A stretch of DNA of 64,000 bases from Parcubacteria bacterium C7867-008 (GTDB taxonomy: Bacteria > Patescibacteriota > Minisyncoccia > Phycocordibacterales > Phycocordibacteraceae), in NCBI GenBank assembly GCA_001189215.1, contig LFCR01000002.1, forward strand, positions 10,677 to 74,676. The letters are read 5' to 3'. How positions within the stretch are numbered: the first letter of the stretch is position 1; the number at the start of each line of letters is the position of its first letter. Position numbers and translations under genes: made by a program. The notes under the pieces are model-generated. The model had not been told where the DNA came from. It made no database searches and saw only the letters and a list, made by a program, of their open reading frames with translations. Shown here in pieces: positions 2,540 to 38,816 of this stretch.

Positions 2540-2890
2540 TTACCAGCTGAGGTGAATAGGTACCAGGAATGGTGCTTCCTGATCGATTTCGGACCGCGCA
2601 ATCGTCCTGAAAGTGGCCCGGACAGTAATCCCGACCTTTTGCACCTCCCGTATCAGCGCGTCGAGGAACTTCCGGAGCTTCCCCTCCACGAAGTGGCCGG
2701 CCTCAGACGTAAGGAACCAAATAACAGTTTCATCCTTTCCTGAGTCTGCTGCGGCCTTCTGATACTGAAGCAGATCGCTCGCGAACCACTCGCGGGCGAC
2801 CTGAACTGGATCCCGATCGTCGAGCTGGATCCCGATGGGATCTCCAGCTATCGCTGCGTCAAATATGTCAGGTGATTTAGTCAAGATCAT
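2540..2890 (-). CDS. hypothetical 116-aa protein inserted between rpsN and rplE
   Basis: uninterrupted ORF, visibly GC-richer than the flanking r-protein genes, no r-protein similarity. Confidence 0.45.
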   Translation of the reverse strand: MILTKSPDIFDAAIAGDPIGIQLDDRDPVQVAREWFASDLLQYQKAAADSGKDETVIWFLTSEAGHFVEGKLRKFLDALIREVQKVGITVRATFRTIARSEIDQEAPFLVPIHLSW

Positions 2891-6474: not shown

Positions 6475-6481
6475 GCGAAGT

Positions 6482-6502
6482 AAAAACCCGCGCAAGCGCG
6501 AG
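6482..6502 (-). promoter_or_regulatory. GC hairpin plus U-tract (minus-strand cucgcg-cuug-cgcggg-uuuuu) about 10 nt upstream of the rpsS ATG; terminator or attenuator-like leader element
   Basis: plus strand AAAAACCCGCGCAAGCGCGAG; near-identical AAAAACCCGCGC element also precedes rpsL (20948-20966). Confidence 0.4.
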
Positions 6503-6593
6503 ATAGGTAAAATCTATATGAAACTAAGTGTCAAATTTAGGGGGTCGTGGTAGGGTCGTAGCAGGAAGCACCATGACATGAGGGGTTTGCGAA

Positions 6594-6971
6594 ATGTCCG
6601 GAGGGCACGGGAATATCATCCAATTTGAGCTGAAACTTGAATTAGAGGGGAAAATATCGCTTGGCACATACCGAGTCTATGACAACCAGGGTAATGCCTT
6701 TACAACCCTTTTCCTGAGCCTGAGAAGGGATGGCTGGGTTCTGTCTACAGAAAGCCTCAGGAAGCTGTTGCTCGTTCTGCTCACGCACACACGAGTCTCG
6801 CTTAATGAAGTGGTGGTTGATGCTTTGTGTTACTACCGCAAGTTGAGCTACGCCGAGAAGGCAGCTCTTGGTGGCGCGATTGATTCAGGCACCGGAATCA
6901 AATTCTATGTGTACGACGGTTGTGATCTATACAGCAACACTCCAGGCGCCTGCATCGCAAGTTTGATGTAA
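6594..6971 (+). CDS. hypothetical 125-aa protein
   Basis: ORF with GAGGGG Shine-Dalgarno 7 nt upstream of the ATG; opposite strand to the ribosomal operon. Confidence 0.4.
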   Translation: MSGGHGNIIQFELKLELEGKISLGTYRVYDNQGNAFTTLFLSLRRDGWVLSTESLRKLLLVLLTHTRVSLNEVVVDALCYYRKLSYAEKAALGGAIDSGTGIKFYVYDGCDLYSNTPGACIASLM

Positions 6972-7049
6972 ATACTAGCCAAGGAGCACGAATGGGGTCT
7001 TGCGGAAACGCAGGACCCTTCCGTTTTTTCTCATGATGCGGAGCTATAC

Positions 7050-7886
7050 TTGGAACATATGGAATATACAGAAATGAATAACAAGCATAAGGCACTGATC
7101 GGTGTAGGAGCCCTTGTACTTATCTTTCTTATCTTTGCTATCTGGTACATGGCTACCCATCAAGCTCCTGCTCCTGTTGGGCCTGTTATAGCAACCTCCA
7201 CTCCAGTGACCACAAGCAGCAGTACACAGACCATTACTGATAACAGCCAATATTACGAGATCAAAGCGACTTATCCTGCTTCTACCCTTCTCAAACAAAC
7301 AACTAGTGAACGAGCCGATACTGAAGCGGTATCCATAATGAAAACATTCGTTGAACAGGAAATCGCTCGATTTAAAGACAATGGAAACTTTGCCAACTTA
7401 ACTCAAGAGGATATCCAGATACAGGGTCTGGGAAATGGCCGCAAATACACTCTCGATGCTGAGTATCAGACATACCAAGGAAAACACACGGTCTCCTACG
7501 TATATACGATAAACCTCGATACCCTTGGAGCACACGGAAACAGCTATTACCGGGTATTCACCTTCGATACTGCAGCAGGCCAGAGTCTTGAGCTGGATGA
7601 CCTCTTTGTCTCAAACAGTGGGTACCTGGAGAAACTCAGTAACATTAGTCGTGTTGATCTACCTGGTGTCATTAGTGCTAAGTTTGGTGAGAGTCCAGAC
7701 ATGGAAGATATTAAGAGTGGTACTACTGCAGACGCTGAAAACTTCCAGAGTTGGTACATAGAAGGTACAAACCTTGTACTTATATTTCCTCCCTATCAGG
7801 TTGGTCCTTACACAATTGGAACCACACTCCTCCCTATTCAACTTTCTCGTCTAGGTGACATGCTTAAAGCAACCTACGTTCCCTAA
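7050..7886 (+). CDS. membrane-anchored DUF4163/DUF3298-like (RsiV/PdaC-type) protein
   Basis: N-terminal TM helix (ALIGVGALVLIFLIFAIWY), Ser/Thr linker, then a two-domain body resembling anti-sigma-V RsiV-like proteins; TTG start with GGAG 6 nt upstream (alternative ATGs at 7059 and 7074). Confidence 0.55.
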   Translation: MEHMEYTEMNNKHKALIGVGALVLIFLIFAIWYMATHQAPAPVGPVIATSTPVTTSSSTQTITDNSQYYEIKATYPASTLLKQTTSERADTEAVSIMKTFVEQEIARFKDNGNFANLTQEDIQIQGLGNGRKYTLDAEYQTYQGKHTVSYVYTINLDTLGAHGNSYYRVFTFDTAAGQSLELDDLFVSNSGYLEKLSNISRVDLPGVISAKFGESPDMEDIKSGTTADAENFQSWYIEGTNLVLIFPPYQVGPYTIGTTLLPIQLSRLGDMLKATYVP

Positions 7887-7969
7887 CTACACCTTCTTCA
7901 ACCGCACCAGTTCTACGAGCGTTGCCTGCACGTTCAGAACGAGGCTCTGTGTGTTGAGAACTATCTTCT

Positions 7970-8215
7970 CTAGAGAGAGAGAAACCTGTCTTCCAGTTTC
8001 TTGAATCTTAGATCAACTTTATCGAACCGTTGATCGATCTGAATGAACCCCTGGTCAATCTTTGAGAATCTTTCATCCACATGCTCGCGAAGAGCATCTA
8101 TACGATCATCAGAGATATCACATCGATCATGTAACGACACAATCTGATCCATTACGTCATAAAGTGTTGGTTCTGTCGTATCAGTCTGAATAACGGATTC
8201 GATTGTGTGTGGCAT
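7970..8215 (-). CDS. hypothetical 81-aa coiled-coil protein with 11-residue RF-x-K-x-D repeats
   Basis: ERFSKIDQGF/IQIDQRFDKVD/LRFKKLEDRFL periodic repeats. Confidence 0.4.
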   Translation of the reverse strand: MPHTIESVIQTDTTEPTLYDVMDQIVSLHDRCDISDDRIDALREHVDERFSKIDQGFIQIDQRFDKVDLRFKKLEDRFLSL

Positions 8216-8276
8216 ACAGATTGCATTAGTGGTGAGTACCTATTAAGGCTAGCAACCTATGCTCATAAACAACGAA

Positions 8277-8301
8277 GAAACCCGTCCACAGGACGGGTTT
8301 C
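8277..8301 (-). terminator. intrinsic terminator after rplB (11-bp stem gaaacccgtcc/ggacgggtttc, loop aca, followed by a modest U-rich run on the minus strand)
   Basis: perfect inverted repeat 27 nt downstream of the rplB stop. Confidence 0.6.
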
Positions 8302-8327
8302 TTCTAAAGGAAAACTTTATATCTTCC

Positions 8328-9173: not shown

Positions 9174-9193
9174 AAATAAGTGCTTACTCGATA

Positions 9194-9556: not shown

Positions 9557-9566
9557 ACGAGTAGAG

Positions 9567-10328: not shown

Positions 10329-10339
10329 ACGTATGAAAA

Positions 10340-10957: not shown

Positions 10958-11140
10958 GTAAAAAGTGAAAACGCGCCCTATTGAAAGTGTCTGTGGGAAT
11001 TCGGGGCGATCCGTTCACCTGGATCTTCCCTGTGCCTGACGGGGCCAGCAACGATCCCTTCAATGGCGCCCTGCCAGATGGAGGCGAGATCAAGCCCGTT
11101 CTCTGCTAGACGATGAGTCTGGCACCTGACACGCAAATAC

Positions 11141-11180
11141 GGTCCCGGTAGCGCAAGCTGCCGGGACTTTGCTTTATATA
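11141..11180 (+). terminator. 12-bp hairpin capped by a GCAA (GNRA) tetraloop followed by UUUGCUUUAUAU on the plus strand; terminator-like element in the rpsJ-rplC spacer
   Basis: GGTCCCGGTAGC-GCAA-GCTGCCGGGACT then TTTGCTTTATATAAA; no plus-strand CDS upstream. Confidence 0.4.
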
Positions 11181-11373
11181 AACAGATAGACCACCCCCAA
11201 GGGAGTAGTCCATACGGCAGCTTATTAATTGACTCGAGTCCCCCAAGGAGAACAGGTCAAAATGATGAGATTTAATCTCCGAAGCTACTCCAGCACTATA
11301 CATAGGAGGCACTAAAGAATGCATGAAGAGAGGTCGGTCCCGCAGGTCCGACCTCTTCTCACAGTAAGAAACA

Positions 11374-11751
11374 TCAGCCTCTGGGAATTTCAAGCGCAGC
11401 CGTCTTGATGAACGCGTCGCTGACCGCAAATAGACCACCACCTAGATCATAGATAAAGAATTCCCCTTCTCCTGAGCTGAATCCTTCTCTGAGAAACAGG
11501 AGCCCATCGAACATGGTTTCCGGAACCCAGTCCTGGAACAGGTAATATCCAATGAGCTGATCTTTGGTGAAAGAAACCCAGTAGTTGAGGTACTGGAAGA
11601 ACTTCACCAAACGCCCCGCTGAGAGTCGCGCGGTTTCACTACCCACCTGACCACATAAGGAACCGTCTGGACGTGTCCTGATGACAGCGGGACGGATTGG
11701 GAACGTTGCCTTTGCAGGCTCTTCACATACGATGCATATTGGGCTATTCAT
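11374..11751 (-). CDS. hypothetical 125-aa protein (C-terminal FIYDLGGGLFAVSD motif)
   Basis: ORF in the rpsJ-rplC spacer, same strand as the operon; motif loosely resembles SMI1/KNR4 (SUKH) GGG motif. Confidence 0.3.
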   Translation of the reverse strand: MNSPICIVCEEPAKATFPIRPAVIRTRPDGSLCGQVGSETARLSAGRLVKFFQYLNYWVSFTKDQLIGYYLFQDWVPETMFDGLLFLREGFSSGEGEFFIYDLGGGLFAVSDAFIKTAALEIPRG

Positions 11752-11848
11752 TCAAGTACCTTTCCAAAACAATCTATTTGGAACGTATCACGGGGCGAGA
11801 AAAAGAAAAGTGCGCCCATTGCTGGGTGCACTCATTCATGCGGACACA

Positions 11849-12118
11849 CTACAAGTACCCGCTCGCTTGCTGTGTGCTCATCTTCAGACGTCGTGCTAGC
11901 CCATAGTGCTGCCACTCAAGCCTGCGTAGCCATCCCGTTACTTGATCTTCGCCATTCATGCGGTCTTCGAATCCACCAAGACACGTCGGTCGATAGTCGC
12001 GCACAGCAGCAAGCTGAGCTCTTACTTCTACAATACTGCGATTAACTCTACGAAGGCTTGAGATGAGCTTGCGCCGCTTAAGTGCTCTGCGGAATCGTAA
12101 CCATCGTCTTATAGACAT
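11849..12118 (-). CDS. hypothetical small basic protein (89 aa, MSIRRWLRFRRALKRRK...)
   Basis: AGGAAA Shine-Dalgarno 8 nt before ATG 12118; lies directly after the rpsJ terminator. Confidence 0.4.
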   Translation of the reverse strand: MSIRRWLRFRRALKRRKLISSLRRVNRSIVEVRAQLAAVRDYRPTCLGGFEDRMNGEDQVTGWLRRLEWQHYGLARRLKMSTQQASGYL

Positions 12119-12164
12119 GTTGGGTTTCCTTTCTGGAAGAACCATATCAGGTATGACAAAAAGA

Positions 12165-12193
12165 AAAAGCTCGGCGGTATGCCGAGCTTTTTC
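12165..12193. terminator. bidirectional intrinsic terminator directly after rpsJ (aaaaagctcggc/gccgagcttttt, loop ggtat)
   Basis: perfect 12-bp A/T-flanked palindrome 20 nt past the rpsJ stop. Confidence 0.65.
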
Positions 12194-12211
12194 TTTAGTC
12201 TGTTCTTTCGA

Positions 12212-12588: not shown

Positions 12589-13791
<1,203 letters not shown>

Positions 13792-14016
13792 AGAATTTGT
13801 AAGTTACTGGTAGGTAAAAATAATTTGCCGCCGCGCCTGCCTGCGCCTTACAAAAGGCAGACAGGCGACCAAGGCTCCGGCGATACCCGCGCAGCGCCTT
13901 CCAGCCACCCCTGCCCCGTTATGGAGAGGAATATCGAAAAGAGCGCCGATCTCGCGTTATGTATAAAGTACCGGAGGCAGAATTAAAGGTCAAGCAATGA
14001 GCTCCTTGCCCGGTTC

Positions 14017-16326
14017 TTAAGTATGGTTGAATAGGCTCAAAAGCCACGTAAACGGAAAGAGGAGATAGTGAATCAGCTGACTGAAGAATTCTCCCGCGCC
14101 TGAAGCAAATACCGCCGCAAGACGCGTCTCCTTAGGCTGGGGTGCGAATGCTGAAGGTCGCGTTCCGCCACCCACACCTGCACCAGTCCCAGTTAGAACG
14201 GATCCCGACTTGGCTGAGAAATCGTATGAATTGCCGGATGGATCGAAGCTGGCATAGGCCGCAACGTTATCCGGTACCACAATGTCGTTTACTTCCGGGG
14301 TTGAACCTTCATTGATAAATCCTCGTGCGGAATTGTTGGACATCACTACGTTAGAAGGGATTGGGTCAGATGCCGTCCTTCGCTTGACCGCTATCCATGT
14401 CGCTCTTCCATTGTCGGTATAGTTTACCGCCGTATTGTGGTCTATAACGCTATCTTTTACGTTGTACCAAGAGAGACCGTGCCACACCGACGTTATGACC
14501 ACATTATTACTTATCGTAAAGTTTATCAGTGGGCCATCAAATGATGCGATTCCCTGCATGCCACCTATAAGCGGCCGATTTGGATCAGTAGTCTCCTGCA
14601 CCCAGTTGTGGTCGATTACCACGTTACTAAATACGGCTCCATTCGTGAATACTTGGATACCATCGTCATGATTAGGATCACCCTGTGACTGATCCACATA
14701 CTCATCAAGGATGGTGTTATTGGAGACAATCATATCAGAACCATTCGGCACGATTCCATCTGCTGAGAAATTCTGAATGACGTTGTCCTTGATTATTCCT
14801 TTTACACTGTTCGCAGGTGCTGTGCCTCCACTGACGCCCGTATTCATGCCGATGCCGCCACGAACATTCTTTATGTGGTTGCGAAGTATAGATAGACACG
14901 GCCCTCCCTTAAGAGTCACGCCGCTTCTTGTACCATTCATCCATTTGTCTACACTCCAACCGGAACTGTTTTTCGCTGTATAGAAATTACCATCTGCGAT
15001 TATGATGTTTGAAACATTGCCACCATAAACCATCACGCCACTTGGAGTAGCTATTGAAGTCATCTCAGGCTTCGTTACAATCCATTTCTTTGCATCATAA
15101 AACTCTAAGCCATCCATGATCGCACCGCTCTCGAACTCTATCCAGAACCATGCGGTCGGATTGTTATATGGTGCTACATTCGCGCTAATCTTCGCTTTTG
15201 GATGATTGCCTGACATAAGCACAATATGATCTCCGGGTTTAACTACTCGTGCTGCCATCATTGCATTCAGCGTTTTGAAAGGACGCACTCTTGTTCCATC
15301 CCCGGTATCTAGTCCAACCACTGGATCAACATAAAGGGTACGTAGATAATTCCTGTCTGGCGCTTCGCATCCTGAATACACTTGGTATGAACCTGAGAGT
15401 GTGGATGGGGCAGGAGGAGGGGTTGGAGTTGGTACCGGCGTTGGGGTAGGGGTAGGGGTTGGCGTGGGAGTTGGTGTCGGTACAGGTGTAGGAGTGGGTG
15501 TAGGAGTTGGGGTCGGAGTAGGGCTTGGAGCAGGGGTAGGCGCCGGAGTGGGAGTTGATGTAGGAGTGGGAGTACCAACACGGGTAGTAATTTCTACTGT
15601 CTTACTAGTACTCCCTCCTGTGCCCTTACACGTAATACCGTAGACTGTATTTTTGCTTATAGATATATCTGCAGAACCATTTGTTTTGTATCCAGCATCA
15701 AAGCCTGCCCCCACACATGACGTTGCTCTATCAGTCTTCCAAGAAAGAGTTACGGTTGATCCAACCAGCACATTTGTTTGATTTGCAGTAAAGGTAACTG
15801 TGGGTCCAGAAGAAGTGGTGGGTGTTTGAGAAGTAGCTACCGGTGTGACAGTTGGAGTTTCAGTTGGCTTTGTACTTCCAGAACCCTTGGGTGCGCTTGG
15901 AGTTGCTATAGCGACTGGTTCCTCTTTCACTACTGGGCTAATGCCAGATACTGGAATGAGCGAAGGCACATCCCGCAGCAGTTCATATTCTTTTAGCGTA
16001 TCTGTAACAGCTACTGGTTCACCTTTTATTGCTGGTACCGCAATACGCGTTACAAGACCATACGCACCTGGAGCAGATATGAGTAATACGAGTATAAGAA
16101 ATATTTGAAAGAATGATCCCTTCGAATTAGTTTTGCTGGGCACAAAAGATTGATGTATACCCGATGGCACTGCGAATGAAGATTTCTGCAACGCAATAAT
16201 TGCAAGCGCACCATGTATATCTTCCGCGGAATACCCTTTTGCAGTGAAGTCCTTCAGCATCTTCTCTTCACTTTCTCCAAGTTGGTGTCTATTGGATAGA
16301 AGTGCCAGAAGTTCTTTGTCTGCCAT
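14017..16326 (-). CDS. membrane-anchored surface protein: cytoplasmic N-terminus, one TM helix, Pro/Thr-rich linker, right-handed parallel beta-helix (pectate-lyase-like) domain
   Basis: [23 protein letters not shown]; (TP)n linker; repeated beta-helix rungs [61 protein letters not shown]; ORF track start 16344 is GTG, first ATG at 16326. Confidence 0.65.
15400..15560. repeat. tandem low-complexity repeat encoding the (Thr-Pro)n linker of the surface protein
   Basis: repeated GTTGG/GTAGG hexamer-like units; reverse strand gives a spurious [12 protein letters not shown]. Confidence 0.7.
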
Positions 16327-16701
16327 ATATTGAAATAGTAGCACTAGGTAGCAAGAAAGAAGGGCGGCCCTTTGGGGGCCGCCGCGAGCACTATCTATTG
16401 CTCGTCGTGTGTATCAGGAACCGCGCCTGCCCATTCCGCGCTGTTGCGCGAGATGATCAGGACCATAGCTGCTGCTCCGTGCGTGACCAACATTGTGGCC
16501 CCAGATCGTTGCGCCGCCTTGCACTTCACCCTGCTGCTGCTGCTGCGGGCCGAGTGTTTCGAAATGCTGCGGCTGTTGCGGTGACCTCACCGCACGAGCG
16601 TCAGGTTGGATGTCCGCCATGGCAGTTCTCCCTATGACCTGCACTAACCATAGCACTGTACTTCTCTATTCTTTGCTGAAAAATTCGAAAGGGGGATATC
16701 T

Positions 16702-17169
16702 CTAGCAGTGAATATTACTAAGCGCTGTGTTAGTGGTTGTTGCACTTCCGTCAAAATCAACACAGAAGTATCCTCCACGCTGGAGCGGAATCGATGCAGC
16801 CCACACGCCAGGGCTTGGAATCTTTTGATAAACCGTTATTACCCCTGGTGCATCAACCTTTTTGTATAGTGACCCGCTTGGATAACAGGATGCTGAGACT
16901 GAATTTACTGCGTTCAATCCAACAGCCCGGTCGAACATGGCACCAGGTGTCGAGGTGGAGTCACACACAGAGTAGTAATCACCGTTTGTTTCGAAATAGA
17001 TCTGTGCAGCTGTTCGCATTTCAGATAGTTGCTGCTTTATTGCTCCATCAGCAGCCCTTTCACGCGCCTTACCAAGCGCAGACATGACGATAGAAGCCAA
17101 TGTCCCAAGTATGGCGATCACCACAAGGAGCTCAATGAGAGTGAATCCGAGCGAGGCACGTCTGCTCAT
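16702..17169 (-). CDS. type IV pilin (major pilin-like, class III prepilin signal)
   Basis: MSRRASLG/FTLIELLVVIAILG prepilin cleavage/methylation motif with Glu at +5; 155 aa, C-terminal Cys pair. Confidence 0.85.
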   Translation of the reverse strand: MSRRASLGFTLIELLVVIAILGTLASIVMSALGKARERAADGAIKQQLSEMRTAAQIYFETNGDYYSVCDSTSTPGAMFDRAVGLNAVNSVSASCYPSGSLYKKVDAPGVITVYQKIPSPGVWAASIPLQRGGYFCVDFDGSATTTNTALSNIHC

Positions 17170-17201
17170 ATACGAGAAATTGTACCACTGCGTATAAATC
17201 T

Positions 17202-17248
17202 AAAGAGAAAGGCCACTGTAGTAGTGGCCTTTCTCTTTAGATTTATTT
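17202..17248. terminator. strong bidirectional intrinsic terminator between fusA and the pilin gene (16-bp perfect stem aaagagaaaggccact/agtggcctttctcttt)
   Basis: perfect inverted repeat with 5-nt loop, T-runs on both sides. Confidence 0.75.
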
Positions 17249-17254
17249 TATCTC

Positions 17255-19402
17255 TTACTTACGAGCTGCAATGATTTCCTGAGCAACGTTGCTTGGAACG
17301 ATCTCATAGTGATCGAATTCCATAGTCATAGATCCACGACCTTCTGTCATAGAGCGAAGAGTTGTGGTGTATCCGAACATTTCAGAGAGCGGTACCTTAG
17401 CGTTAACCACCTTATTCATGCCACGATCTTCCATACCTTCGATAGCACCACGCTTTCCTGAAAGGTTCCCGGTGATATCACCCATGAACTGTTCAGGGAC
17501 CACCACCTCAACACGCATGATCGGTTCGAGGATAACGGGCTTAGCTTTAAGTGCTGCCTCCTGGAATGCCTGAGATGCTGCGATCTTGAAAGCGATTTCA
17601 GAAGAGTCCACATCGTGATACGAACCGTCGTAGAGATCTACCGATACGTCTACGATTGGGTACCCAGCGAGAATACCGCGATGGAGTGATTCACGAATAC
17701 CCTTCTCAACAGCAGGGATGTATTCCTGAGGAATAACACCTCCCTTAATGTTGTTGATGAATTCGAAGTGGTCCTCGCGCTTAACGTTCTTGAGTTCTTT
17801 AGCATCTGGATCAAGTGGTTCAAGGTGCTTGAGCTTGATCTTAACGTGTCCGTATTGACCCTTACCTCCTGTCTGCTTGATGTACTTGTTGTCTACATCG
17901 GCAGTACCCGTGATAGTTTCGCGGTATGCCACCTGCGGCTTACCAACGTTTGCGCCAACATTGAATTCACGTTGCATACGGTCCACAAGAATCTCGAGGT
18001 GCAGCTCACCCATACCTGCGATGATAGTCTCTGATGTTTCTTCATCAGATGTGATCTTGAAGGTTGGGTCTTCATCCGAAAGCTTCTTGAGTGCCATACC
18101 CATCTTTTCCTGGTCTGCCTTAGTCTTCGGCTCAATGCGAAGAGACACCACTGGTTCTGGGAATACAATCTGCTCAAGGATGATTGGATTCGCTTCATCA
18201 CAAAGGGTGTGTGAAGTCTTTGTATCCTTAAGACCTACGAATGCTGCAATCTCTCCGGTGAATACCTTTTCAACTTCCTCACGCTTATCTGCCTGAAGAC
18301 GAACGATACGTCCAATACGTTCCTTGCTACCCGTGTTTGCGTTGTAGATATAGGAACCAGCTGCAACGGTACCTGCGTACACACGGAAGAATGTAAGTGC
18401 TCCCACGAATGGGTCTGTCTGAAGCTTGAAAGCGAGCGCTGTGAATGGCTCTTCATCAGAAGGCTTACGCTGAATCTCTTCATCCGTCTTAGGATTAATA
18501 CCCTTTACTGGAGGAAGATCGAGTGGAGATGGAAGATAATCAACAACCGCATCGAGCACAAGCTGCACACCCTTGTTCTTAAGCGCAGAACCGGTGTATA
18601 CGGGGAAGATCTCGTTTGCAATCACTGCCTTACGGAGTGTTGCCTGCAGTTCAGCGTATGATGGTTCGTTGCCTTCGAGGTATGCCTGCATCTGTGCTTC
18701 GTCATTCTCAACAATGCGCTCTACAAACTCAGCATGATACTTCTCAGCTTCAGCTTTGTACTGCTCAGGAATTTCTCCTTCAATAACATCCTCACCCATG
18801 TTGCCTGTGAAGGTATATGCCTTCATGCCAAGCAGATCGATAACACCTTCGAAGTCTCCTTCTGCACCCATAGGGAGCTGTGCACGAACTGCCTTCTTTG
18901 AAAGACGATCAAGAATAGACTTGTATGAATCCTCGAATGATGCGCCAGTACGGTCGAGCTTGTTGATGAAACAAACACGAGGCACACCTGCTTCGTCTGC
19001 ATAGCGCCAGTTAGTTTCAGACTGTGGCTCTACACCAGCTACACCGTCGAATACGACGATCGCGCCGTCGAGCACACGCATGGAGCGCTTCACTTCTGCA
19101 GTAAAGTCGATGTGTCCTGGCGTGTCGATCACGTTGAAGCGGTACTTCTTAGCGATATCCTTCTTGTCCTTCTCATTGGTACGTGTCCAGAAACACGTAA
19201 TAGCAGCAGAGGTGATCGTGATACCACGTTCACGTTCCTGCTCCATCCAGTCGGTGGTGGTTCCACCATCGTGCACTTCACCAATCTTGTGCTGGGAACC
19301 AGTGTAGAAAAGCACACGCTCAGACGTAGTGGTTTTACCCGCGTCCACGTGGGCGACGATACCGAAGTTGCGCACTTTGTCGAGAGGATAATCGCGATTC
19401 AT
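17255..19402 (-). CDS. fusA: elongation factor G
   Basis: [26 protein letters not shown]...; 715 aa. Confidence 0.97.
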
Positions 19403-19424
19403 ATAATAAGTAGATAAATAAATG

Positions 19425-19440
19425 GAAAAGCCCGCCAGGG
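19425..19440 (-). promoter_or_regulatory. short GC hairpin plus U-tract (gcccuggcgggcuuuu) 25 nt upstream of the fusA ATG
   Basis: plus strand AAAAGCCCGCCAGGGC. Confidence 0.3.
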
Positions 19441-19465
19441 CGTTAGCTATAAGATACGTTTTTAG

Positions 19466-19514
19466 AGGTAAAAAGGCAAGAATCAGGGGCGCCGAGCAAG
19501 TTACTCGACGCCCC
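19466..19514 (-). terminator. GC-rich hairpin (ggggcgccgag/ctcgacgcccc, 10 of 11 bp paired) followed by a U-rich tract on the minus strand
   Basis: seen in sequence; follows the small GC-rich minus-strand ORF 19542-19727. Confidence 0.45.
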
Positions 19515-19541
19515 GTTGATTGATTAGCGATCAGGCCCTGT

Positions 19542-19727
19542 CTAAGGATTTGCCATCATTCTCAGACGGCGACTGATCTGACTTGCGGCGCTTGCTCGTG
19601 CAGCAAGGTCGCGGTCCCTCGCAAAGGCGCGATTCTCGGGACGAACTGACCTTCCAGCCTTTGCTCGAACTGCGCTTACCTCTTCAGGAGTTGGTCGTGT
19701 TCCACCTCTTTTTTGAGTTTCGCCCAT
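19542..19727 (-). CDS. doubtful small Arg-rich ORF (61 aa) in GC-rich patch
   Basis: only an ORF plus a downstream terminator; low-complexity translation. Confidence 0.2.
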
Positions 19728-19843
19728 GTACTACCCCACCAGTTAGTGTTGCCTGTAGTGAAAATACGATTTTAGTACTGTTTAGTCAAATTAGGTTACG
19801 CACAGGTTGCATCCATACAGCACGGTGCTACTCTCACTGAGGT

Positions 19844-20137
19844 TTGTACGGGGAAACAGTTATGACCGAAGTGACCACCGAACGCCGGCCTTCTTTCGCC
19901 GAATGCTTTCCTGGAATTACCATCACCAACTTGGACTTGATGGCCTTACCCGAAGGACTTCGTCCTGAACATCGGGGTAATTGGTTCGCAGACGGCCCCA
20001 AGGGGCAGCTCATCGTCGGGAGCGTCGTGAAGGGAGACGTTCTTTGTTGGACCACTTGCTGCAGGGACACCGGGAAGCACGATTGCATTAAACGGCTCGA
20101 AACTGAACTACTCAGTAATGGGTTCGTGAAGAAATAA
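19844..20137 (+). CDS. hypothetical 97-aa Cys-containing protein (alternative start 19862)
   Basis: ORF converging on the terminator at 20155-20180; no recognised family. Confidence 0.3.
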   Translation: MYGETVMTEVTTERRPSFAECFPGITITNLDLMALPEGLRPEHRGNWFADGPKGQLIVGSVVKGDVLCWTTCCRDTGKHDCIKRLETELLSNGFVKK

Positions 20138-20154
20138 GATTCTGAAGGAAAACG

Positions 20155-20180
20155 AAAGCGCGCCAATCCGGGCGCGCTTT
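20155..20180. terminator. intrinsic terminator (aaagcgcgcc/ggcgcgcttt) 25 nt downstream of rpsG, also closing the plus-strand ORF
   Basis: 10-bp GC stem, U-rich flank on the minus strand (cguuuucc). Confidence 0.55.
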
Positions 20181-20204
20181 AACGTTTCTATGTGATTGAG
20201 GAGA

Positions 20205-20654
20205 TTACCAAGCGAAGTGAGCGAATGCCTTGTTGGCGTCTGCCATGCGGTGCATGTCGTCCTTCTTCTTGATTGCTGCACCTTCGTTCTTTACATCAGC
20301 AAGTTTGTCTGCCATAGGCTTACCTTTCTTAGCGCGTGCTGCGTTGATGAGCCATCGGTATGCAAGAGATACACGGCGCTGCTGAGGTACCTCGCGTGGA
20401 ACCTGGTAGTTTGCACCACCGACACGACGTGAACGAACCTCCATGAGTGGTGATACGTTACGGATCGCAGTCTCAAATGTTTCGAGTGGATCAAGATCCT
20501 GTTCCTTGATCTTGTTAAGGGCTCCGTACACAACGGCACGAGCAGTATCCTTCTTACCGTCCCACATTACGGTGTTGATGAAGCGAGAGATTGCTTCAGA
20601 ACCGTACTCTTGGTCCGGGCGGCGAGGATGCTTATTTTTTAGGGGATGTCGCAT
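20205..20654 (-). CDS. rpsG: 30S ribosomal protein S7
   Basis: ...RFINTVMWDGKKDTARAVVYGAL...EVRSRRVGGANYQVP...HRMADANKAFAHFAW. Confidence 0.95.
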   Translation of the reverse strand: MRHPLKNKHPRRPDQEYGSEAISRFINTVMWDGKKDTARAVVYGALNKIKEQDLDPLETFETAIRNVSPLMEVRSRRVGGANYQVPREVPQQRRVSLAYRWLINAARAKKGKPMADKLADVKNEGAAIKKKDDMHRMADANKAFAHFAW

Positions 20655-20656: not shown

Positions 20657-20938
20657 TTAAAAATTAAAGAGCTCCTGAAGGTTGTGTCCTTCACCTGGAA
20701 TGTATGCAGTAACTTCCATACCGTTCGTGAGACGTACACGAGCGATCTTACGGATAGCAGAGTTTGGCTTGCGAGGGGTCTTTGTAGTCACCTTGGTGCA
20801 CACGCCACGCTTGAATGGAGCAGCGTAGAACGTAGGGCGGTTCTTCAGTGCATTGAAGCCACGACCAAGAGCCACCACCTTTGTTTTGCGGGTGACCGGC
20901 TTGCGAGACTTCTTTGTGAGCTGATTAAGCGTTGCCAT
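20657..20938 (-). CDS. rpsL: 30S ribosomal protein S12, apparently C-terminally truncated (93 aa; lacks the [24 protein letters not shown]... segment)
   Basis: matches S12 through ...[47 protein letters not shown] then LFNF-stop; S7 ATG follows 2 nt later; no continuation in other frames. Confidence 0.8.
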
Positions 20939-20947
20939 GTGGTGAAT

Positions 20948-20966
20948 GAAAAACCCGCGCTGCGGG
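20948..20966 (-). terminator. hairpin plus U-tract (gcgcggguuuuuc on the minus strand) between the oxygenase gene and the rpsL ATG
   Basis: plus strand AAAAACCCGCGCTGCGGG; same AAAAACCCGCGC core as the element before rpsS. Confidence 0.45.
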
Positions 20967-20999
20967 ATAGGGAGACTATATAAGAATAGGCCAGAGTCC

Positions 21000-21938
21000 C
21001 TACTCTTTGGAAAGTAAGCCGAGCGCTGCCAAGCGGTCGAGGAGAAATTCCCCCGCTGTCTGAAAGTGATAGATTTCCAGGTCTGAAGGGCCCAGATGGG
21101 CCAACGGAACGATACTGGTGTCGCCTCGCACGTGGCCGAAATGTGGCACAGAGAACCTTTCGAGGCCGGGCTGGCAGACTACACGGTGCTTTCCAGACCG
21201 GTATCTGCCACCGGTCAAATGCTCGAGCATGTCGCCCACATTCACGATCAGAACATTGGGGTTCGTGATATGAGCAGACATCCACTCACCCTCGTGCCAG
21301 AGCTGGAGCCCTGGCTCTCGAGCGAGCAGCAGCGTGAGCATGTTGATGTCCGTGTGCGCTGCCGCACACATCCCAACAATATTCCCTCCCCGCCGTATCG
21401 CGGCGTCATCGTCTTGCGGATTATCGTGTGCAGGATAATGAAGCGCTCGCGTAAGGCTGTCACCCTCCAGAAAGTCGAAATGATTCCCTGGTAAACCGAG
21501 CGACAGGGCCACACCCTGCATGACCAAGCGATACACCCGAGTGAATTCCTCGTACAACATCTGTTGCGTCAGGGTGAACGAAGGAAGTTCTTCCACATCC
21601 GGGCACTCACCCTTATGCGTGTGCCAGAAATGTTTCAGATCTTCGGTGGCCGCTCCTTCAGCGCGTTCAATGTTCATTGGTGTATATCCCATCTGGCCGT
21701 GAGATCCGGGGACAATGTACTTCGAGCGCTGTTCAGGAGTGAGCTGCGTGAAGAACGCATGCATTGCTCTCGTCGCCTTTTCAATTAGCTGTTGCGAGAT
21801 GCCGTGATTCTCCAGGAAGAGAAAACCTGTCTGGCCAAATGCTTTACGAAGACTTTCCACGAACAAATCAACACGTTCAGGATCACCGGACGTCAGTGAG
21901 CCGAGGTTCAACGTGAGAATGGGAGCACTCTTTGACAT
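21000..21938 (-). CDS. 2-oxoglutarate/Fe(II)-dependent oxygenase (isopenicillin-N-synthase-like family)
   Basis: [10 protein letters not shown] ... H motif pattern and overall 2OG-FeII_Oxy layout; start taken at [13 protein letters not shown]. Confidence 0.7.
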
Positions 21939-22099
21939 TGCTAAGACCCTTTGATTAGCCGGCAGCGCCGAGCGTGAAAACGTTATCCGCATGCAGCCTA
22001 ACAATGTAGGAGGGATACGTAAATCCCCAGATAATTATCAGTGAATATTTACTTCCCTCTTACGGTCCTCATATCACCTTTTGGCTAGAGTGCGGTCAT

Positions 22100-25051
22100 A
22101 TGAATACCATCATTTCCACCTTCTTCCGTTCTCTTGTGTCTGCATTCCTACTTATATCTCTGATACTAGAAATGATCCTACCTGGTATCGCTGAGGCAGC
22201 AGTAACTCCCCCTACTGACCCTCCTATATATGCTGAGTTCAACTTCACATATCCATATTGGTATCACCCGGTGATTGGTGGGGGCCAAGATGCAGTGAAA
22301 TTTGGCGACACCGTTCAAACAAGTGGATTGGTTCGTAGTGACGCAAAAATCACGAGCATAACAATTGATGCAACAGAACTAGGAATCTCTGAATTAATTG
22401 AATACCCCGTACTGTATAACCCTACTGAACAACTCTATCCATTTGGAGCAGCATTACATGTTAGAACACACGCAAACGGTACTGCAAAACTACGCGTCAC
22501 AATTATCGATGAACATGGCAACAAGAATATACAGGTACAGACATTGAAACTTGATAACACGCCCGCAGTCATTCGTATTGATGACACGCGTTACGCAACA
22601 ACCTCAGGTGCAACGGGCACGTTACTGGTATCTGGTTCACTTGATGAAAACGAAACAAAACTCTATGCCTATGACTATCGCTATGTACTCTACGGTGCTG
22701 ATCACACCGAAATTGATAGCGGGAGTCTTGAACAGCGCGCAGAAGGTGTCCAAGCATTTACTGATCTACCAAAAGGTCCTTTTACTGATTATTCAGTACG
22801 ACTTGGTTCCTATCCGCTCGATCGTCATCCGGAGGCAGTATATGTAGCAATACGCTTGGTTATGCGTGATGGTGCAGGAAATGACACCGTTGCATTTGGA
22901 CCAATGGTCGCGCTATCTGGAACAACCACTCCCACTCTTCCAGAGATACCGCATGGAACTGGTGTATCGAGTGTTCTATTTCTTCCAGGTATTGAAGGAA
23001 GTCGTCTATATCGAACTACTGATGGATGCTCACCAACCCAAAGCTCATGTGTTGAACAAAAACTGTGGGATCCATCAGGAACTACGGATGTGCGTGATCT
23101 GTACCTAAACGAGAATGGCACTAGTGTTCGCCCAGACATATACACAAAGGCGGGAGATTCAATAAACAATGTCTTGTTATTTAAATTCTATGAATCATTC
23201 GCAAAGGATATGGATTCCTTTCGAAGTGCTGGGGCGATGACTGAATGGCGTTCTGTTGCGTATGACTGGCGACTATCCCTCAACGACGTTGTTTCAAAAG
23301 GTGCACAGCACGATTCACGCATCTACTACAGCGAGGCAACCAGCACGCCGTATATAGTACAAACGCTACGTGAACTGGCGTCTCGTTCGAAGACGGGAAA
23401 AGTGACGATTGTTGCCCATTCAAATGGTGGTCTCGTTGCAAAGACCTTGCTTGAAAAGATTGGAGCCACAGAGACAGCGCGATTGATAGACAACGTGATA
23501 CTGGTAGGAACACCCCAAAGTGGTGCACCTCAATCAATTGCCGGTCTTTTACATGGATACGGTACGGCACTTCCTGCGGACTGGTGTTCAACTTGGGCCG
23601 TAGTGGGAGCACTGTGTTCTAAGAATGTGTCGCGTACACGCGCACGAGCACTAGCAGAGAACATGCCCGGTACTTATCACCTTCTTCCTTCACTTTCCTA
23701 TTTCGATCTGGTGCGTGACGCCTTACATCCACTCATCGCTTTCACTACGAACAATGCATACCGTGCGGAACGAACAGCCTATGGTCGCACTATCGATTCT
23801 GAAAGTGAACTGTTTAAATTCCTCACCGCACAGGAAGGTGGAAGAACAAAACCTATTCCGAGTGAACTATCGAAACCAAATGTATTAAATGCATTACTAC
23901 TCTCATACACACACGACACACATGGAGTGATTGATGCGTGGACGCCACCTCCAAGCGTGCAGGTATATCAGATTGGTGGTTGGGGCATAGACACACTATC
24001 TGGAATTGAATACTACGACCGCAAGAAACCTAGTGGTGCTCCGGGTGAGACTGTCGTTGCGTATCGCCCTGCATTTGTAGAGGATGGTGACGCTACGGTA
24101 CCAATCCCCAGTGCACTACTCATGCCGGTAGCATCAAATGTAAAACGCTACTGGTTAGATCTGTCTGGCTCAGCACTTCTTGCATCCCTTGCAGGCATTC
24201 GTCACGCCAACCTCCTTGAATCTGATCAACTGCGTGTGTTTATTGGAAATATACTTCTTGCAAAACAGACTACGCTTCCCCGCTCAATAACCACCACACA
24301 GCCAGCAACGATAAATCCTAAAAAGAAATTACTCTTCATGCTGCGCGGACCAGCCACACTGCATGCCTATGATCGAAATGGAAGACACACCGGACAAAGT
24401 GTGGATGGTCCACTTGAAGAAAGTATTCCTGGGACAACATACGGAGAGATTGGTGAAACTAAATATATTCTTGCCGTAGCGGACGACACCTACCAAATCG
24501 TTGCACGAGGATTTGAAGCAGGTATTGCAAGTCTTGAAATTGAAGAGCAGAGCGAAGACACATCCATTGCATCAAGCACATATGAAACAACAACTAGTAT
24601 GAGTAGCGAAGTATCACTAACGATTACAAACGGTATTGAAGGAACAATAGGATTTGAGGATACCGAATCCACTTCAACCATCCCTGTTCTTTCACCGATT
24701 CAAGAGGAGAATGGTGAACGTCATTCTGGAAAAAGTTCTTCATTGCACAGCACATCTAGTACCGAACTAATAATTAGTGAGACACCACGGCATGTTCCTG
24801 CACCCGTTAGTATTGAGATTCCAGTTGGATCTGATGCTGAAACTGCTAAAGAAGAAGTGGTTTCAACTACAAGCACATCGTCTGTGGTACCACTGACAGC
24901 ATCTACCGAACTTTCGGTATCTCGTAAAAGAAATTCACGCATGACCGCCAGTGCACTGGTACCTGTACAAGACTTTGTCTACGAATTACTTGCAGCAATC
25001 TTGAAACTACTTAGTTCTATACTGTCGCTTATCTCAAGTATCTGGAAGTAA
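22100..25051 (+). CDS. large secreted alpha/beta-hydrolase (LCAT/PGAP1-like lipase or esterase fold) with Ser/Thr-rich region and C-terminal hydrophobic anchor
   Basis: signal peptide; LFLPGIEGSRL and TIVAHSNGGLVAK (GxSxG nucleophile elbow); C-terminal LAAILKLLSSILSLISSIW. Confidence 0.65.
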   Translation: MNTIISTFFRSLVSAFLLISLILEMILPGIAEAAVTPPTDPPIYAEFNFTYPYWYHPVIGGGQDAVKFGDTVQTSGLVRSDAKITSITIDATELGISELIEYPVLYNPTEQLYPFGAALHVRTHANGTAKLRVTIIDEHGNKNIQVQTLKLDNTPAVIRIDDTRYATTSGATGTLLVSGSLDENETKLYAYDYRYVLYGADHTEIDSGSLEQRAEGVQAFTDLPKGPFTDYSVRLGSYPLDRHPEAVYVAIRLVMRDGAGNDTVAFGPMVALSGTTTPTLPEIPHGTGVSSVLFLPGIEGSRLYRTTDGCSPTQSSCVEQKLWDPSGTTDVRDLYLNENGTSVRPDIYTKAGDSINNVLLFKFYESFAKDMDSFRSAGAMTEWRSVAYDWRLSLNDVVSKGAQHDSRIYYSEATSTPYIVQTLRELASRSKTGKVTIVAHSNGGLVAKTLLEKIGATETARLIDNVILVGTPQSGAPQSIAGLLHGYGTALPADWCSTWAVVGALCSKNVSRTRARALAENMPGTYHLLPSLSYFDLVRDALHPLIAFTTNNAYRAERTAYGRTIDSESELFKFLTAQEGGRTKPIPSELSKPNVLNALLLSYTHDTHGVIDAWTPPPSVQVYQIGGWGIDTLSGIEYYDRKKPSGAPGETVVAYRPAFVEDGDATVPIPSALLMPVASNVKRYWLDLSGSALLASLAGIRHANLLESDQLRVFIGNILLAKQTTLPRSITTTQPATINPKKKLLFMLRGPATLHAYDRNGRHTGQSVDGPLEESIPGTTYGEIGETKYILAVADDTYQIVARGFEAGIASLEIEEQSEDTSIASSTYETTTSMSSEVSLTITNGIEGTIGFEDTESTSTIPVLSPIQEENGERHSGKSSSLHSTSSTELIISETPRHVPAPVSIEIPVGSDAETAKEEVVSTTSTSSVVPLTASTELSVSRKRNSRMTASALVPVQDFVYELLAAILKLLSSILSLISSIWK

Positions 25052-25684
25052 TTACGCACCAATCAAGAAACGGAAAACATGTGTCACAAAATATGAGAAC
25101 GGTGCTGCAAGGAAATAACTGAAGACCAGCAACACAACAATAAGTGTTATGACACCTCCCTGACGAAGTCGTTCTTCAAATTCAAGAAACGCCATGGCGT
25201 TCTTCGGAGGAATAAGTCCACGAAGGAAAGTGTACCCATCAAGCGGCGGAATAGGGATCAGATTAAAGAGGCCAAGATAGAGATTCACGAGTGTAACAAT
25301 AGAGGCAAGTGCGGCAAACGATTCCATGCCGTTTGCAAAGGCAAATCGAGCCAGAAGTGCAAAAAACACTGCAAGCAGAAGGTTAGTGCCCACTCCAGCT
25401 ACTGCAACAAATGCTTCACCGTAGCGCTGATTCCTTAGATTAAAAGGGTTATATGGGACCGGTTTTGCCCAACCAAACAAGAATCCTGAGTTTGTTAGAA
25501 CCAAAATAGCAGGCAGAATAACGGAACCAATGGGGTCTAAATGACGAATAGGATTGAGTGTGAGGCGTCCTGCCAGCTTTGCTGTTGGATCTCCCAACGC
25601 GTATGCCGCGTACGCATGAGCAACCTCATGGATTATGACTGACATTATAAGGACAGCGATGGTGAAAAAGGCCTCTGGTTGCAT
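25052..25684 (-). CDS. site-2 protease family (M50) zinc metalloprotease
   Basis: HEVAHAYAA ... LDG motifs, multi-TM. Confidence 0.8.
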   Translation of the reverse strand: MQPEAFFTIAVLIMSVIIHEVAHAYAAYALGDPTAKLAGRLTLNPIRHLDPIGSVILPAILVLTNSGFLFGWAKPVPYNPFNLRNQRYGEAFVAVAGVGTNLLLAVFFALLARFAFANGMESFAALASIVTLVNLYLGLFNLIPIPPLDGYTFLRGLIPPKNAMAFLEFEERLRQGGVITLIVVLLVFSYFLAAPFSYFVTHVFRFLIGA

Positions 25685-25715
25685 GTGAAGAATGATATGG
25701 TACCATGCGGAAACT

Positions 25716-25958
25716 ATGGCACGAAGCTGCGCAATTACAGGAAAGACTACTCAGGTAGGCGGACGGTACTCTAACCGTACGCGTGCTACTGAGTTCAATC
25801 CAACCGGAAAGGTACGACGTCATGCTAATCTTCAGAAGCGTAATATCTTCGTTCCTGAACTCGGTCAGAGCTTCCTCATTGATATTTCAACTTCTGCGCT
25901 CCGCACCATCAAAAAGAACGGTGCATACGCGACACTTCGCAAAGCAGGTCTTATCTAA
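25716..25958 (+). CDS. rpmB: 50S ribosomal protein L28
   Basis: MARSCAITGKTTQVGGRYSNRTRATEFNPTGKVRRHANLQKRNIFVPE... Confidence 0.85.
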   Translation: MARSCAITGKTTQVGGRYSNRTRATEFNPTGKVRRHANLQKRNIFVPELGQSFLIDISTSALRTIKKNGAYATLRKAGLI

Positions 25959-26001
25959 GAGCAACGAAAGAAAAACCGCCTCTACTTGGGGCTGTTTTTC
26001 T

Positions 26002-26868
26002 TTATCTCTGTGTCTTTGTTTGTACCGCTACTCCGTCACTCACAAAGCGAATAGTTCCTGAATCAATAGTCGAATAAACAGTTGCACCTTCCCTTTGTAT
26101 TCGTTCAAGTACTTCAGGATTTGGATGTCCATATGTATTTCCCTTCCCTGCTGAAATAGCGACTATGGATGGTTGCACCGCCGTAAGCCATACAGCATCT
26201 GTAGAATGTTTTGATCCGTGGTGACCTGCTTTTAATACATCACTTTCTAGTCCCTCAGTACCATACCGACTCATAAGGTAGTCCTCCTGTTCTGATGGAA
26301 GATCGCCAGTTAAAAGAAAAGAGGTATCTCCGTACACTACACGCATCGTCACAGAGCCTGCATTAGTTTCTCCTTTGGACACATCGTGATCTGGGTACAA
26401 GACATCTGCGTACGCAGTACCCCCAAGATGAATACGCATTCCTCTACGAGCAATAAAACTCTTGGCATTTGGTTCACGCATAACGGAATCTTCAACGGTA
26501 TGCGTGATGGCTGTGTCGTTTGAGATACCTGGACTTAAGAAATATGAAATAACATACGTACCAAATACTCCCGGAAGTCCTGCAATATGGTCTTTATCTG
26601 GGTGTGTCTCAACAACGAGATCTATGGATCTATCCAGTATTCCTATTTCTTTTGGTAGTTGTCGAGACACCGAACGATCGGGGCCAGCATCTATAAGCAT
26701 TTGAATACCAGTGGGACCTTGTACTAAAATTGAATCTCCCTGCCCAACATCAAGAATCGAAACACGTAATGACTGATCGTTGTGTACAAATACTGTATGC
26801 CACACAAACACGTTCATAGCAGTAGCTACTGCAATGATGCACACTAGCGCGCCATAGGAGATTCGCAT
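26002..26868 (-). CDS. ComEC/Rec2-related protein, metallo-beta-lactamase domain only, with N-terminal TM helix
   Basis: ILDVGQGDSILVQ...VVETHPDKDHIAG...KAGHHGSKHS MBL motifs. Confidence 0.8.
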   Translation of the reverse strand: MRISYGALVCIIAVATAMNVFVWHTVFVHNDQSLRVSILDVGQGDSILVQGPTGIQMLIDAGPDRSVSRQLPKEIGILDRSIDLVVETHPDKDHIAGLPGVFGTYVISYFLSPGISNDTAITHTVEDSVMREPNAKSFIARRGMRIHLGGTAYADVLYPDHDVSKGETNAGSVTMRVVYGDTSFLLTGDLPSEQEDYLMSRYGTEGLESDVLKAGHHGSKHSTDAVWLTAVQPSIVAISAGKGNTYGHPNPEVLERIQREGATVYSTIDSGTIRFVSDGVAVQTKTQR

Positions 26869-26871
26869 GGG

Positions 26872-27231
26872 CTAGTGCACCGTTTCATTCGGTATATTGA
26901 GCTGATCAAGTATTTCATCTAATGCATTCACATCAGACAGATCAATTGACTCAGATGTCTCTGCAGCCTTTTCCAGGAATGCGCGATATCTCGCATTTAT
27001 CGCAGTTTTCTCATCTCCATCGAGCCAACGACTCATCGCTTCCTCGCGAATGGCGCTACTTACGGCACGGGGTTCACGTTCATCCATTTGCACACCAGGA
27101 TGCGATCGTCGGTACAGACGTAGCGCGAGCATTGCTTGAAGCTTAAATCCAGCTTCTGAAATAAGTACGTGTACATCACGGGACTCTGAGTGTTGAATCG
27201 GGCGTTCCGGTAATGCTTCGCTCATAGACAT
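26872..27231 (-). CDS. hypothetical 119-aa acidic protein
   Basis: ORF only. Confidence 0.35.
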   Translation of the reverse strand: MSMSEALPERPIQHSESRDVHVLISEAGFKLQAMLALRLYRRSHPGVQMDEREPRAVSSAIREEAMSRWLDGDEKTAINARYRAFLEKAAETSESIDLSDVNALDEILDQLNIPNETVH

Positions 27232-27348
27232 AAGTATATCTTGTTGCCAGATAGGAATCTGCAGATCTCAGCAAGCTTTTATATAGGGCTTATTTTGTAC
27301 TTATTTTTAAAAGCGTATACTTATATCTATCTCATAACCAGCCGAACC

Positions 27349-27945
27349 ATGACCTACATCGCACGAACATTTAACCTTCCAGAGCTTAAAGGACTTTCCA
27401 AGAAACAGATTGATATACACCTTGCTCTCTATGAGGGGTATGTAAAACACACGAATCTTATTACCGAGAAGATTGAGAAGCTCCGAGAAGAAGATGCTGA
27501 AGGTAACGCGTACCTTATGGCAGAACTACGTCGCCGTCTTGGATTTGAGTTTGATGGCATGCGTATGCACGAGTATTATTTCGAACAATTCGAAGGAGAT
27601 ATGACATCTCAGGATTCAAGTCATCCGCTTACGGAAGCAGTAACCGACCGCTACGGTTCATGGGAAAAGTTTATTGCACACATCAAGGAAGTGGCTGGCA
27701 CGCGTGGTATCGGTTGGACGGTCGTATATTACGATCCACGCGGTCGTGCAATCCACACGGTTTGGGTCAATGATCATGAAGTTGGTCAGCTTGCAGGACT
27801 CCCTATCTTACTTGCGCTTGATATGTGGGAGCACGCATACATGGTTGATTACGTTCCTGCAGATAAGAAATCATACGTAGAAGCATTTCTTGATAACGTA
27901 AACTGGTGCGTTCCAGAAGGTCGTTTCCTCGATGCAGTAACCTAA
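27349..27945 (+). CDS. Fe/Mn superoxide dismutase family protein
   Basis: C-terminal DMWEHAYMVDY...NVNW signature; N-terminal LPELKG...IH..Y..YV; start at MTYIARTFNLPELKG. Confidence 0.7.
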   Translation: MTYIARTFNLPELKGLSKKQIDIHLALYEGYVKHTNLITEKIEKLREEDAEGNAYLMAELRRRLGFEFDGMRMHEYYFEQFEGDMTSQDSSHPLTEAVTDRYGSWEKFIAHIKEVAGTRGIGWTVVYYDPRGRAIHTVWVNDHEVGQLAGLPILLALDMWEHAYMVDYVPADKKSYVEAFLDNVNWCVPEGRFLDAVT

Positions 27946-29471: not shown

Positions 29472-29525
29472 GCCAGAAGCATAGACGCGCGATGTTCAAA
29501 TTACCGTAATGGGATTCTAAAGAAA

Positions 29526-29948
29526 CTATGACTTTCTATCCATTGCCTTGTTAGCAAGTTCATCTGCATCTTTGTTCTTCTCGCGTGGAACATGTTCGAA
29601 ATGCACCGTACCGAAGTTACGAGCAAGAACATTCTTCACTGAAAGGTACCGAGGAATAAGATTTGGGTGTTTCACTTTGTATGCACCCTTCAACTGTTCA
29701 ATAACGAGTTTACTGTCCATGCGAATTCGCAGTGACATGTGTTGAAAATATCCATCAGGATAGTGCTCGTGTAGTTTCACGAGACCACGCAGTACTGCTT
29801 CGTACTCAGCAACGTTATTCGTTGCAGTTCCAAGATAGTCAGCAACTTCCACTACCCTTTTGCCAGCGGTATCAAAGACTACTGCACCCGCACCTGCATG
29901 ACCTGGGTTACCGCGTGACCCACCATCTGCGTATAGCGTAAATTCCAT
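29526..29948 (-). CDS. rnhA: ribonuclease HI
   Basis: LYADGGSRGNPGHAGAGAVVF...NNVAEYEAVLRGL... Confidence 0.85.
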   Translation of the reverse strand: MEFTLYADGGSRGNPGHAGAGAVVFDTAGKRVVEVADYLGTATNNVAEYEAVLRGLVKLHEHYPDGYFQHMSLRIRMDSKLVIEQLKGAYKVKHPNLIPRYLSVKNVLARNFGTVHFEHVPREKNKDADELANKAMDRKS

Positions 29949-29957
29949 GAAACCAGT

Positions 29958-31712: not shown

Positions 31713-31752
31713 CGTCTGCACAGTGTACCAAAACGCGGTATCATTCACGCAT

Positions 31753-33299: not shown

Positions 33300-33307
33300 A
33301 TGTATGC

Positions 33308-34264: not shown

Positions 34265-34268
34265 CCGC

Positions 34269-35003: not shown

Positions 35004-35021
35004 AATCGTAGCATGCGACCT

Positions 35022-36488: not shown

Positions 36489-36489
36489 A

Positions 36490-38791: not shown

Positions 38792-38816
38792 CTATGATAC
38801 CGCGCCGACGCTTGAA

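Follow-up and report, generated by a model that had tools for sequence, protein, structure and literature searches.

Truncated rpsL on a scaffold of Parcubacteria bacterium C7867-008 is very probably a local assembly error

The window analyzed here is a stretch of 64,000 nucleotides from contig LFCR01000002.1 of the metagenome-assembled genome (MAG) Parcubacteria bacterium C7867-008, in which the gene order rpsL-rpsG-fusA is kept. The rpsL open reading frame (20657..20938, minus strand) encodes a protein of 93 amino acids, consisting of residues 1-89 of ribosomal protein S12 followed by the residues LFNF and a TAA stop codon. The ATG of rpsG, encoding ribosomal protein S7, is found at 20654..20652, 2 nt past the rpsL stop codon. 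An earlier note on this DNA had reported a 93-residue product with only the N terminus of S12, ending in four odd residues and a stop, and the reading frame together with Pfam and structure alignments bears this out; its placement of the S7 start was likewise correct. The features discussed below are collected in Table 1.

Table 1. Coordinates of rpsL, its neighborhood and the other defective sites in the window (loci of relatives are numbered L001 onward)
Feature	Position	Strand	Description and basis
rpsL codons 1-89	20672..20938	-	Genuine S12 including the KPNSA loop, ending ...GEGHNLQE; Pfam, solved structures, relatives
LFNF + TAA	20657..20671	-	rpsL-rpsG spacer read in frame; DNA alignments to L001, L004, L005, L011-L013
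rpsL -10 box and leader	20939..20982	-	TATAGT at 20975-20980; hairpin CCCGC-AGC-GCGGG at 20954-20966; T5 run at 20949-20953
rpsG (S7), 149 aa	20205..20654	-	15 nt (5 codons, EILLA in closest relatives) missing between 20295 and 20296; alignment
rplV (L22), 88 aa	5854..6120	-	Break between 5868 and 5869 after ...LVKYMP; Pfam PF00237 positions 4-83 of 104
75-nt gap versus JGI assembly	between 20995 and 20996	.	Lost: terminator-like hairpin and T-run directly after the 2OG-oxygenase stop, and rpsL -35 box TTGCAC
5-nt gap (ACCCG) versus JGI assembly	between 6523 and 6524	.	rpsS promoter spacer: TTGACA-N17-TAGATT in JGI, N12 in the window

We compared the truncated protein with the S12 family. The Pfam profile PF00164 (Ribosom_S12_S23) matches S12 residues 34-89 with profile positions 5-63 of 110 (E = 7.4e-22). 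The N-terminal half of the domain with its conserved KPNSA loop is thus present in the window, but the complete domain is not, as profile positions 64-110, which comprise the C-terminal strands and the RGGRVKD..GV.Y..VRG loop, are missing. In alignments with solved S12 chains, window residues 1-89 correspond to residues 1-89 of 138-aa chains or to residues 1-76 of 124-aa chains, and each aligned chain goes on for ~48 residues past the break. Pfam, the structures and the DNA alignments described below agree that the C-terminal third is absent, as the earlier note had claimed; the loop sequence that it gave for this third does not hold, the loop of this clade reading otherwise. We searched the 64-kb window for the lost portion by tblastn, using E. 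coli S12, B. subtilis S12 and a C-terminal peptide as queries and admitting E values up to 100. No S12 C-terminal fragment was found elsewhere in the window, the best match (E = 0.14, in the L4 region) being noise like all others.

These searches bear on a split or recoded rpsL, whose C-terminal third would lie elsewhere and be attached at the level of RNA or protein, or be reached by a programmed frameshift. In land-plant chloroplasts, rps12 is trans-spliced, the split falling after about codon 38 with the halves of a group II intron on its flanks, and the window resembles this arrangement in that the 5' part of an S12 gene stands alone at one locus. It differs in that the break follows codon 89, no intron RNA was detected and no 3' part is found in the window. 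An Rfam scan of the window at gathering thresholds returned only a tRNA-Gly at 60325 and no intron or other RNA family, no frame of the window encodes an S12 C-terminal fragment, and as S7 starts 2 nt after the rpsL stop codon, there is no alternative frame. Beyond the truncation itself nothing speaks for a split or recoded gene, and we regard it as extremely improbable.

We next aligned the locus at the DNA level to those of close relatives, as the earlier note had suggested, and found ~150 nt to be missing from the window. The window follows the relatives codon by codon as far as CAG GAG (Q88 E89) and then resumes with the last 16-17 nt of the spacer, placing the break between 20671 and 20672 with an ambiguity of 1 nt. 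In the aligned loci, rpsL continues after E89 for 47 more codons and a stop codon, followed by a spacer of ~21 nt to rpsG. The missing DNA hence comprises codons 90-136 (47 in all), the rpsL stop codon and a few bases of the spacer. The closest full-length uS12, a 136-aa protein from Paceibacteria (P0375; MDB5265475.1, HEV7121499.1; locus L011), is identical to the window protein at 86 of 89 residues. Its locus shares with the window the rpsL promoter and leader, an LCAT-like gene upstream, rpsG immediately downstream and fusA beyond, but the window reading frame lacks the last 47 residues and the stop codon of its counterpart.

A full-length S12 is the rule among the relatives. All 119 other S12 cluster representatives among the matches listed are full-length, with 130-160 aa and 85-94% identity over the 89 residues. 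We also scanned species genomes, taking one genome per species and the best 80 loci obtained with a hybrid full-length S12 query; C7867-008 was not among them. All 80 loci match at least residues 1-130 of the query, and S12 reaches 79-90 residues beyond KPNSA in 79 of the 80 species genomes versus 37 in the window. In the loci that we read in detail (L001-L005, L011-L013), rpsL is intact, rpsG comes directly after it and fusA lies downstream. The earlier note had raised the possibility that relatives share the short form; we looked for it and found it in no relative among the matches listed. Among the members listed for the 90% identity clusters of S12 (15 of 103 in the relevant S12 cluster) and S7, the best matches are 86/89 and 144/149, respectively, and the listed members thus include no full-length copy of either protein from the same strain.

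The relatives' rpsL sequences (L011 2569-2979, L012, L001, L015-L094) also allow for a reading of the decoding-centre loop. In 24 of 80 species genomes, the loop ends in (I/V)VRG, is one residue shorter than the canonical form and lacks its proline. The clade has many other variants, among them DIGVRYT, DVGLRYT and DLIGVRYH, and the canonical loop occurs in only 6 of the 80 species genomes.

We investigated whether the retained part of rpsL has decayed. Between codons 1-89 of the window and the closest relative (L011), we count 34 synonymous and 3 non-synonymous changes, corresponding to a dN/dS of 0.018; values across four relatives range from 0.018 to 0.05, and S7 compared with a relative yields ~0.02. 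The retained S12 codons are under strong purifying selection and show no pseudogene decay, although a pairwise dN/dS is blind to a very recent event, and a very recent rpsL deletion would thus leave no signal in it. The deposited sequence does read as a deletion in rpsL. Such a deletion, if real and very recent, would leave the gene dead or crippled and the cell dependent on a second, intact rpsL elsewhere, which could sit outside the bin or the window, given that the MAG is incomplete. However, the window contains neither a second rpsL nor a fragment of one in a genome of ~0.8 Mb, every relative's locus that was read in detail carries its intact rpsL directly before rpsG with fusA downstream, and the relaxed selection expected of a pseudogene with a functional paralogue is not seen in the retained codons. 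We consider a real deletion backed by a second gene improbable, also in light of the further defects that we describe below.

Indeed, rpsL is not the only damaged gene on this scaffold. S7 measures 154-156 aa in all 119 other representatives among the matches listed versus 149 aa in the window. The 15-nt loss that accounts for the shorter protein is exactly in frame, which is what selection acting on a real deletion would give but which also happens by accident in one of three cases. Ribosomal protein L22 lacks the last 24 residues (RAMGRAAPVRRRKSRVLVTLSTSK, ~72 nt), which are present in every aligned relative. Their proteins end in ...KYMPRAMGRAAPVRRRKSRVLVTLSTSK, whereas the window reads ...KYMP followed by FSIP and a stop codon, and this tail overlaps the S3 start codon at 5857. 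L22 homologues among the matches listed have 105-149 aa, with the exception of a 91-aa match that originates from a 341-nt contig. L22 and rpsL share the same pattern, in which a conserved gene loses its 3' end and the scaffold picks up again in the spacer ahead of the following gene, and the L22 truncation probably represents the same kind of assembly error. Nineteen other ribosomal protein reading frames scanned against Pfam show no terminal loss, with L3 set aside owing to a long model that was matched in part.

We compared the window to an independent assembly of the same strain, JGI metagenome 3300001199, whose contigs we recovered by exact-protein look-ups. These contigs cover window positions 6464-10961, 13255-20274, 20929-30051 and 30683-51816 (~41.7 kb) and are 100% identical to it, save for two stretches of 75 and 5 nt that are absent from the window (Table 1). 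Both lie in promoter regions. The rpsL promoter reads TTGCAx-N17-TATAGT in the relatives and in the JGI version, and at both comparable sites the JGI assembly keeps a canonical promoter with a -35 box, a 17-nt spacer and a -10 box, whereas the window version is damaged. If JGI 3300001199 represents another Hanford sample, strain polymorphism could in principle account for the differences of 75 and 5 nt. The ends of the JGI contigs fall at 20929 and 6464, in each case 10 nt inside a gene (rpsL and rpsS, respectively), and at 20274 (contig J055_10004466), where the S7 defect is ~20 nt away; a second assembler thus broke off in the same regions. Neither an S12 35-mer nor an S7-start 29-mer, used in exact-DNA scans, matched a JGI contig containing 20275-20928, the interval that spans the rpsL junction, and this junction is covered by no second assembly. 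A Logan contig from run SRR2043728, which is probably the run behind the SRA entry SRX1041926, equals window 31563-42345 at 100% identity. In exact-protein look-ups, the window S12, S7, S3 and L16 are on record in no other assembly, and the oxygenase matched only the already known JGI contig.

Taken together, stretches of 5, 15, ~72, 75 and ~150 nt are missing at five sites, which are grouped in two short portions of the scaffold with conserved ribosomal genes. Each of the five is unique to MAG C7867-008 and damages features that are kept by every relative among the matches listed, and two of them are directly contradicted by the JGI assembly. A real rpsL deletion would have to coincide with deletions in L22, in S7 and in two promoters, all of them unique to this MAG. 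The same findings weigh against a genuinely short S12, in which case the ribosome would operate with 89 residues of S12, without the last OB-fold strands and the KD..GV.Y loop, and with a short L22 and a short S7 as well. CPR bacteria lack some ribosomal proteins, the genes flanking rpsL are intact and the S7 loss is in frame, all of which would fit such a ribosome. However, the short forms of S12, L22 and S7 are shared by no relative among the matches listed, even at 94% identity, we see no compensating feature, and the promoters of the short genes, which the JGI assembly shows intact, are damaged in the window. In addition, the missing part of S12 holds sites of streptomycin-resistance and fidelity mutations (the K87/P90 region in E. 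coli numbering). A genuinely short S12 therefore appears very improbable to us, and even jointly with a real deletion compensated by a paralogue it is left with only a small share of the probability.

The leaders of rpsL (20949..20982, minus strand) and rpsS (~6475..6520, minus strand) follow one design, in which a -10 box is followed by ~8 nt, a GC-rich hairpin, a T-run, another 8-15 nt and the ATG, with no obvious Shine-Dalgarno sequence. The motif CGGGTTTTT occurs in the window only in these two leaders. We examined the DNA upstream of rpsL in related species (loci including L001, L004, L011, L012 and L015-L094) and found a hairpin with a T-run at most 60 nt upstream of the gene in 45 of 83 species, compared with 31 of 1660 shuffled sequences and 7 of 498 coding windows. 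The stems vary among species (CCCGC/GCGGG, GACCC/GGGTC, ACTCCC/GGGAGT, TAGTCG/CGACTA), and these differing sequences suggest covariation. The hairpin of the rpsL and rpsS leaders has no match in Rfam, and MAFFT together with RNAalifold returned no consensus structure for the rpsL leaders because the stems were not aligned. The hairpin may act as a 5'-terminal stabilizing stem-loop or as an attenuator.

The clusters of ribosomal protein and elongation factor genes are interrupted by non-ribosomal genes at 2540..2890, 6496..8327, 10958..12211, 13792..17254 and 19403..20204. A reading frame of 116 aa lies between rpsN and rplE, rpsS is separated from rplB by a set of genes that includes a DUF3298 gene and lies in part on the opposite strand, and 1.2 kb lie between rplC and rpsJ. 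A Pro/Thr-rich protein of 775 aa and an N_methyl pilin-like gene are located between tuf and fusA. The interval between fusA and rpsG contains a 61-aa reading frame, at a place where a KGG-domain gene is found in relatives, and a 91-aa reading frame on the opposite strand. The JGI contigs confirm this arrangement for 6464-10961 and 13255-20274.

The provenance of the sequence is in line with a technical origin of the rpsL truncation. In public databases, the identical 93-aa S12 is found only as S12 of Parcubacteria bacterium C7867-008, encoded on a contig of 173,687 bp. According to the accessible part of the source paper (Nelson and Stegen 2015, PMC4508563), the MAG derives from groundwater of Hanford well C7867 and from a single TruSeq library, which was run on a HiSeq 2000 for 2x100 reads; the assembler was IDBA_ud v1.1.0 with its default settings. 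Scaffolds with a coverage of 8-42x were binned into genomes, of which C7867-008 consists of six scaffolds totaling 808 kb, with a completeness of 74% by a generic marker set and of 91% relative to a complete OD1 genome (PMC4508563). That part of the paper describes no curation or read-level correction of the MAG. The window itself contains no N. Local errors of this kind have been documented by Chen, Anantharaman, Shaiber, Eren and Banfield (2020, PMC7111523), who found 13 local assembly errors in one CPR genome and warned that skipped curation leads to incomplete gene sequences in databases. Our case resembles the IDBA-UD errors in PMC7111523 in that an uncurated IDBA_ud scaffold of a CPR organism carries genes that are cut where a second assembly breaks or carries extra sequence. 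Those errors were defined by the lack of perfectly matching reads across the junction, ours by comparison with relatives and with a second assembly.

We conclude from these comparisons of sequences that the truncated rpsL very probably reflects a local error in the assembly of this uncurated IDBA_ud scaffold and not a property of the organism. The earlier note had left three readings side by side. Of these, an assembly or sequencing deletion is favored by the defects being unique to this MAG and by the contradicting JGI contigs, and a pseudogene with a functional copy elsewhere finds no support within the window, where there is neither a second copy nor relaxed selection. In the real genome, the locus would most likely contain a 136-codon rpsL ending in ..KPKA, a spacer of ~20 nt and a 154-codon rpsG. 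Past the break, the true rpsL would read ...CTTCAGGAGCACTC... (NLQE, then HS).

We infer the exact assembler step behind the missing stretches as follows. In a sample with many related Parcubacteria, conserved ribosomal protein genes would have been the places where the assembly graph broke up; the short contigs would then have been linked by read pairs, and small gaps of 5, 15, ~72, 75 and ~150 nt would have been closed by joining the ends directly. IDBA scaffolding may behave in this way. We found no convincing repeats at the junctions that would explain a shortcut in the graph. Among 83 relatives, which are not the species co-occurring in the sample, shared 20-mers peak in S12 at the RGGRVKDIG region and are high at the 3' end of S7. 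The signal is weak, and shared k-mers at the missing parts are no more than suggestive of graph fragmentation.

A 9-mer, GAGCTCTTT, is located at the rpsL junction (20666..20674, minus strand) and nowhere else in the window. It also occurs in the 75-nt piece (L007 positions 68-142) that is missing ~320 nt upstream, for which we roughly estimate a chance of ~1%. The shared 9-mer may hint at how the mis-join arose.

Our findings are first of all a flag on data quality. The GenBank entries for S12 (93 aa), L22 (88 aa) and S7 (149 aa) of LFCR00000000 have probably been truncated or shortened by assembly, and at least two promoter regions are damaged in the same scaffold. The S12, L22 and S7 loci of this MAG are thus unreliable for ribosomal-protein phylogenies, for surveys of ribosomal-protein loss in the CPR and as a taxonomic reference. 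The decoding-centre loop of S12 is, to our knowledge, universally conserved, and a short S12, if true, would be a striking exception to this rule. Together with an L22 devoid of its C-terminal strand and an S7 that is five residues shorter, an S12 without its second decoding-centre loop would then amount to an extreme and very recent remodeling of a CPR ribosome, an outcome to which we assign a very low probability. As biology, the truncation most likely has no import, since the S12 of this organism is almost certainly normal.
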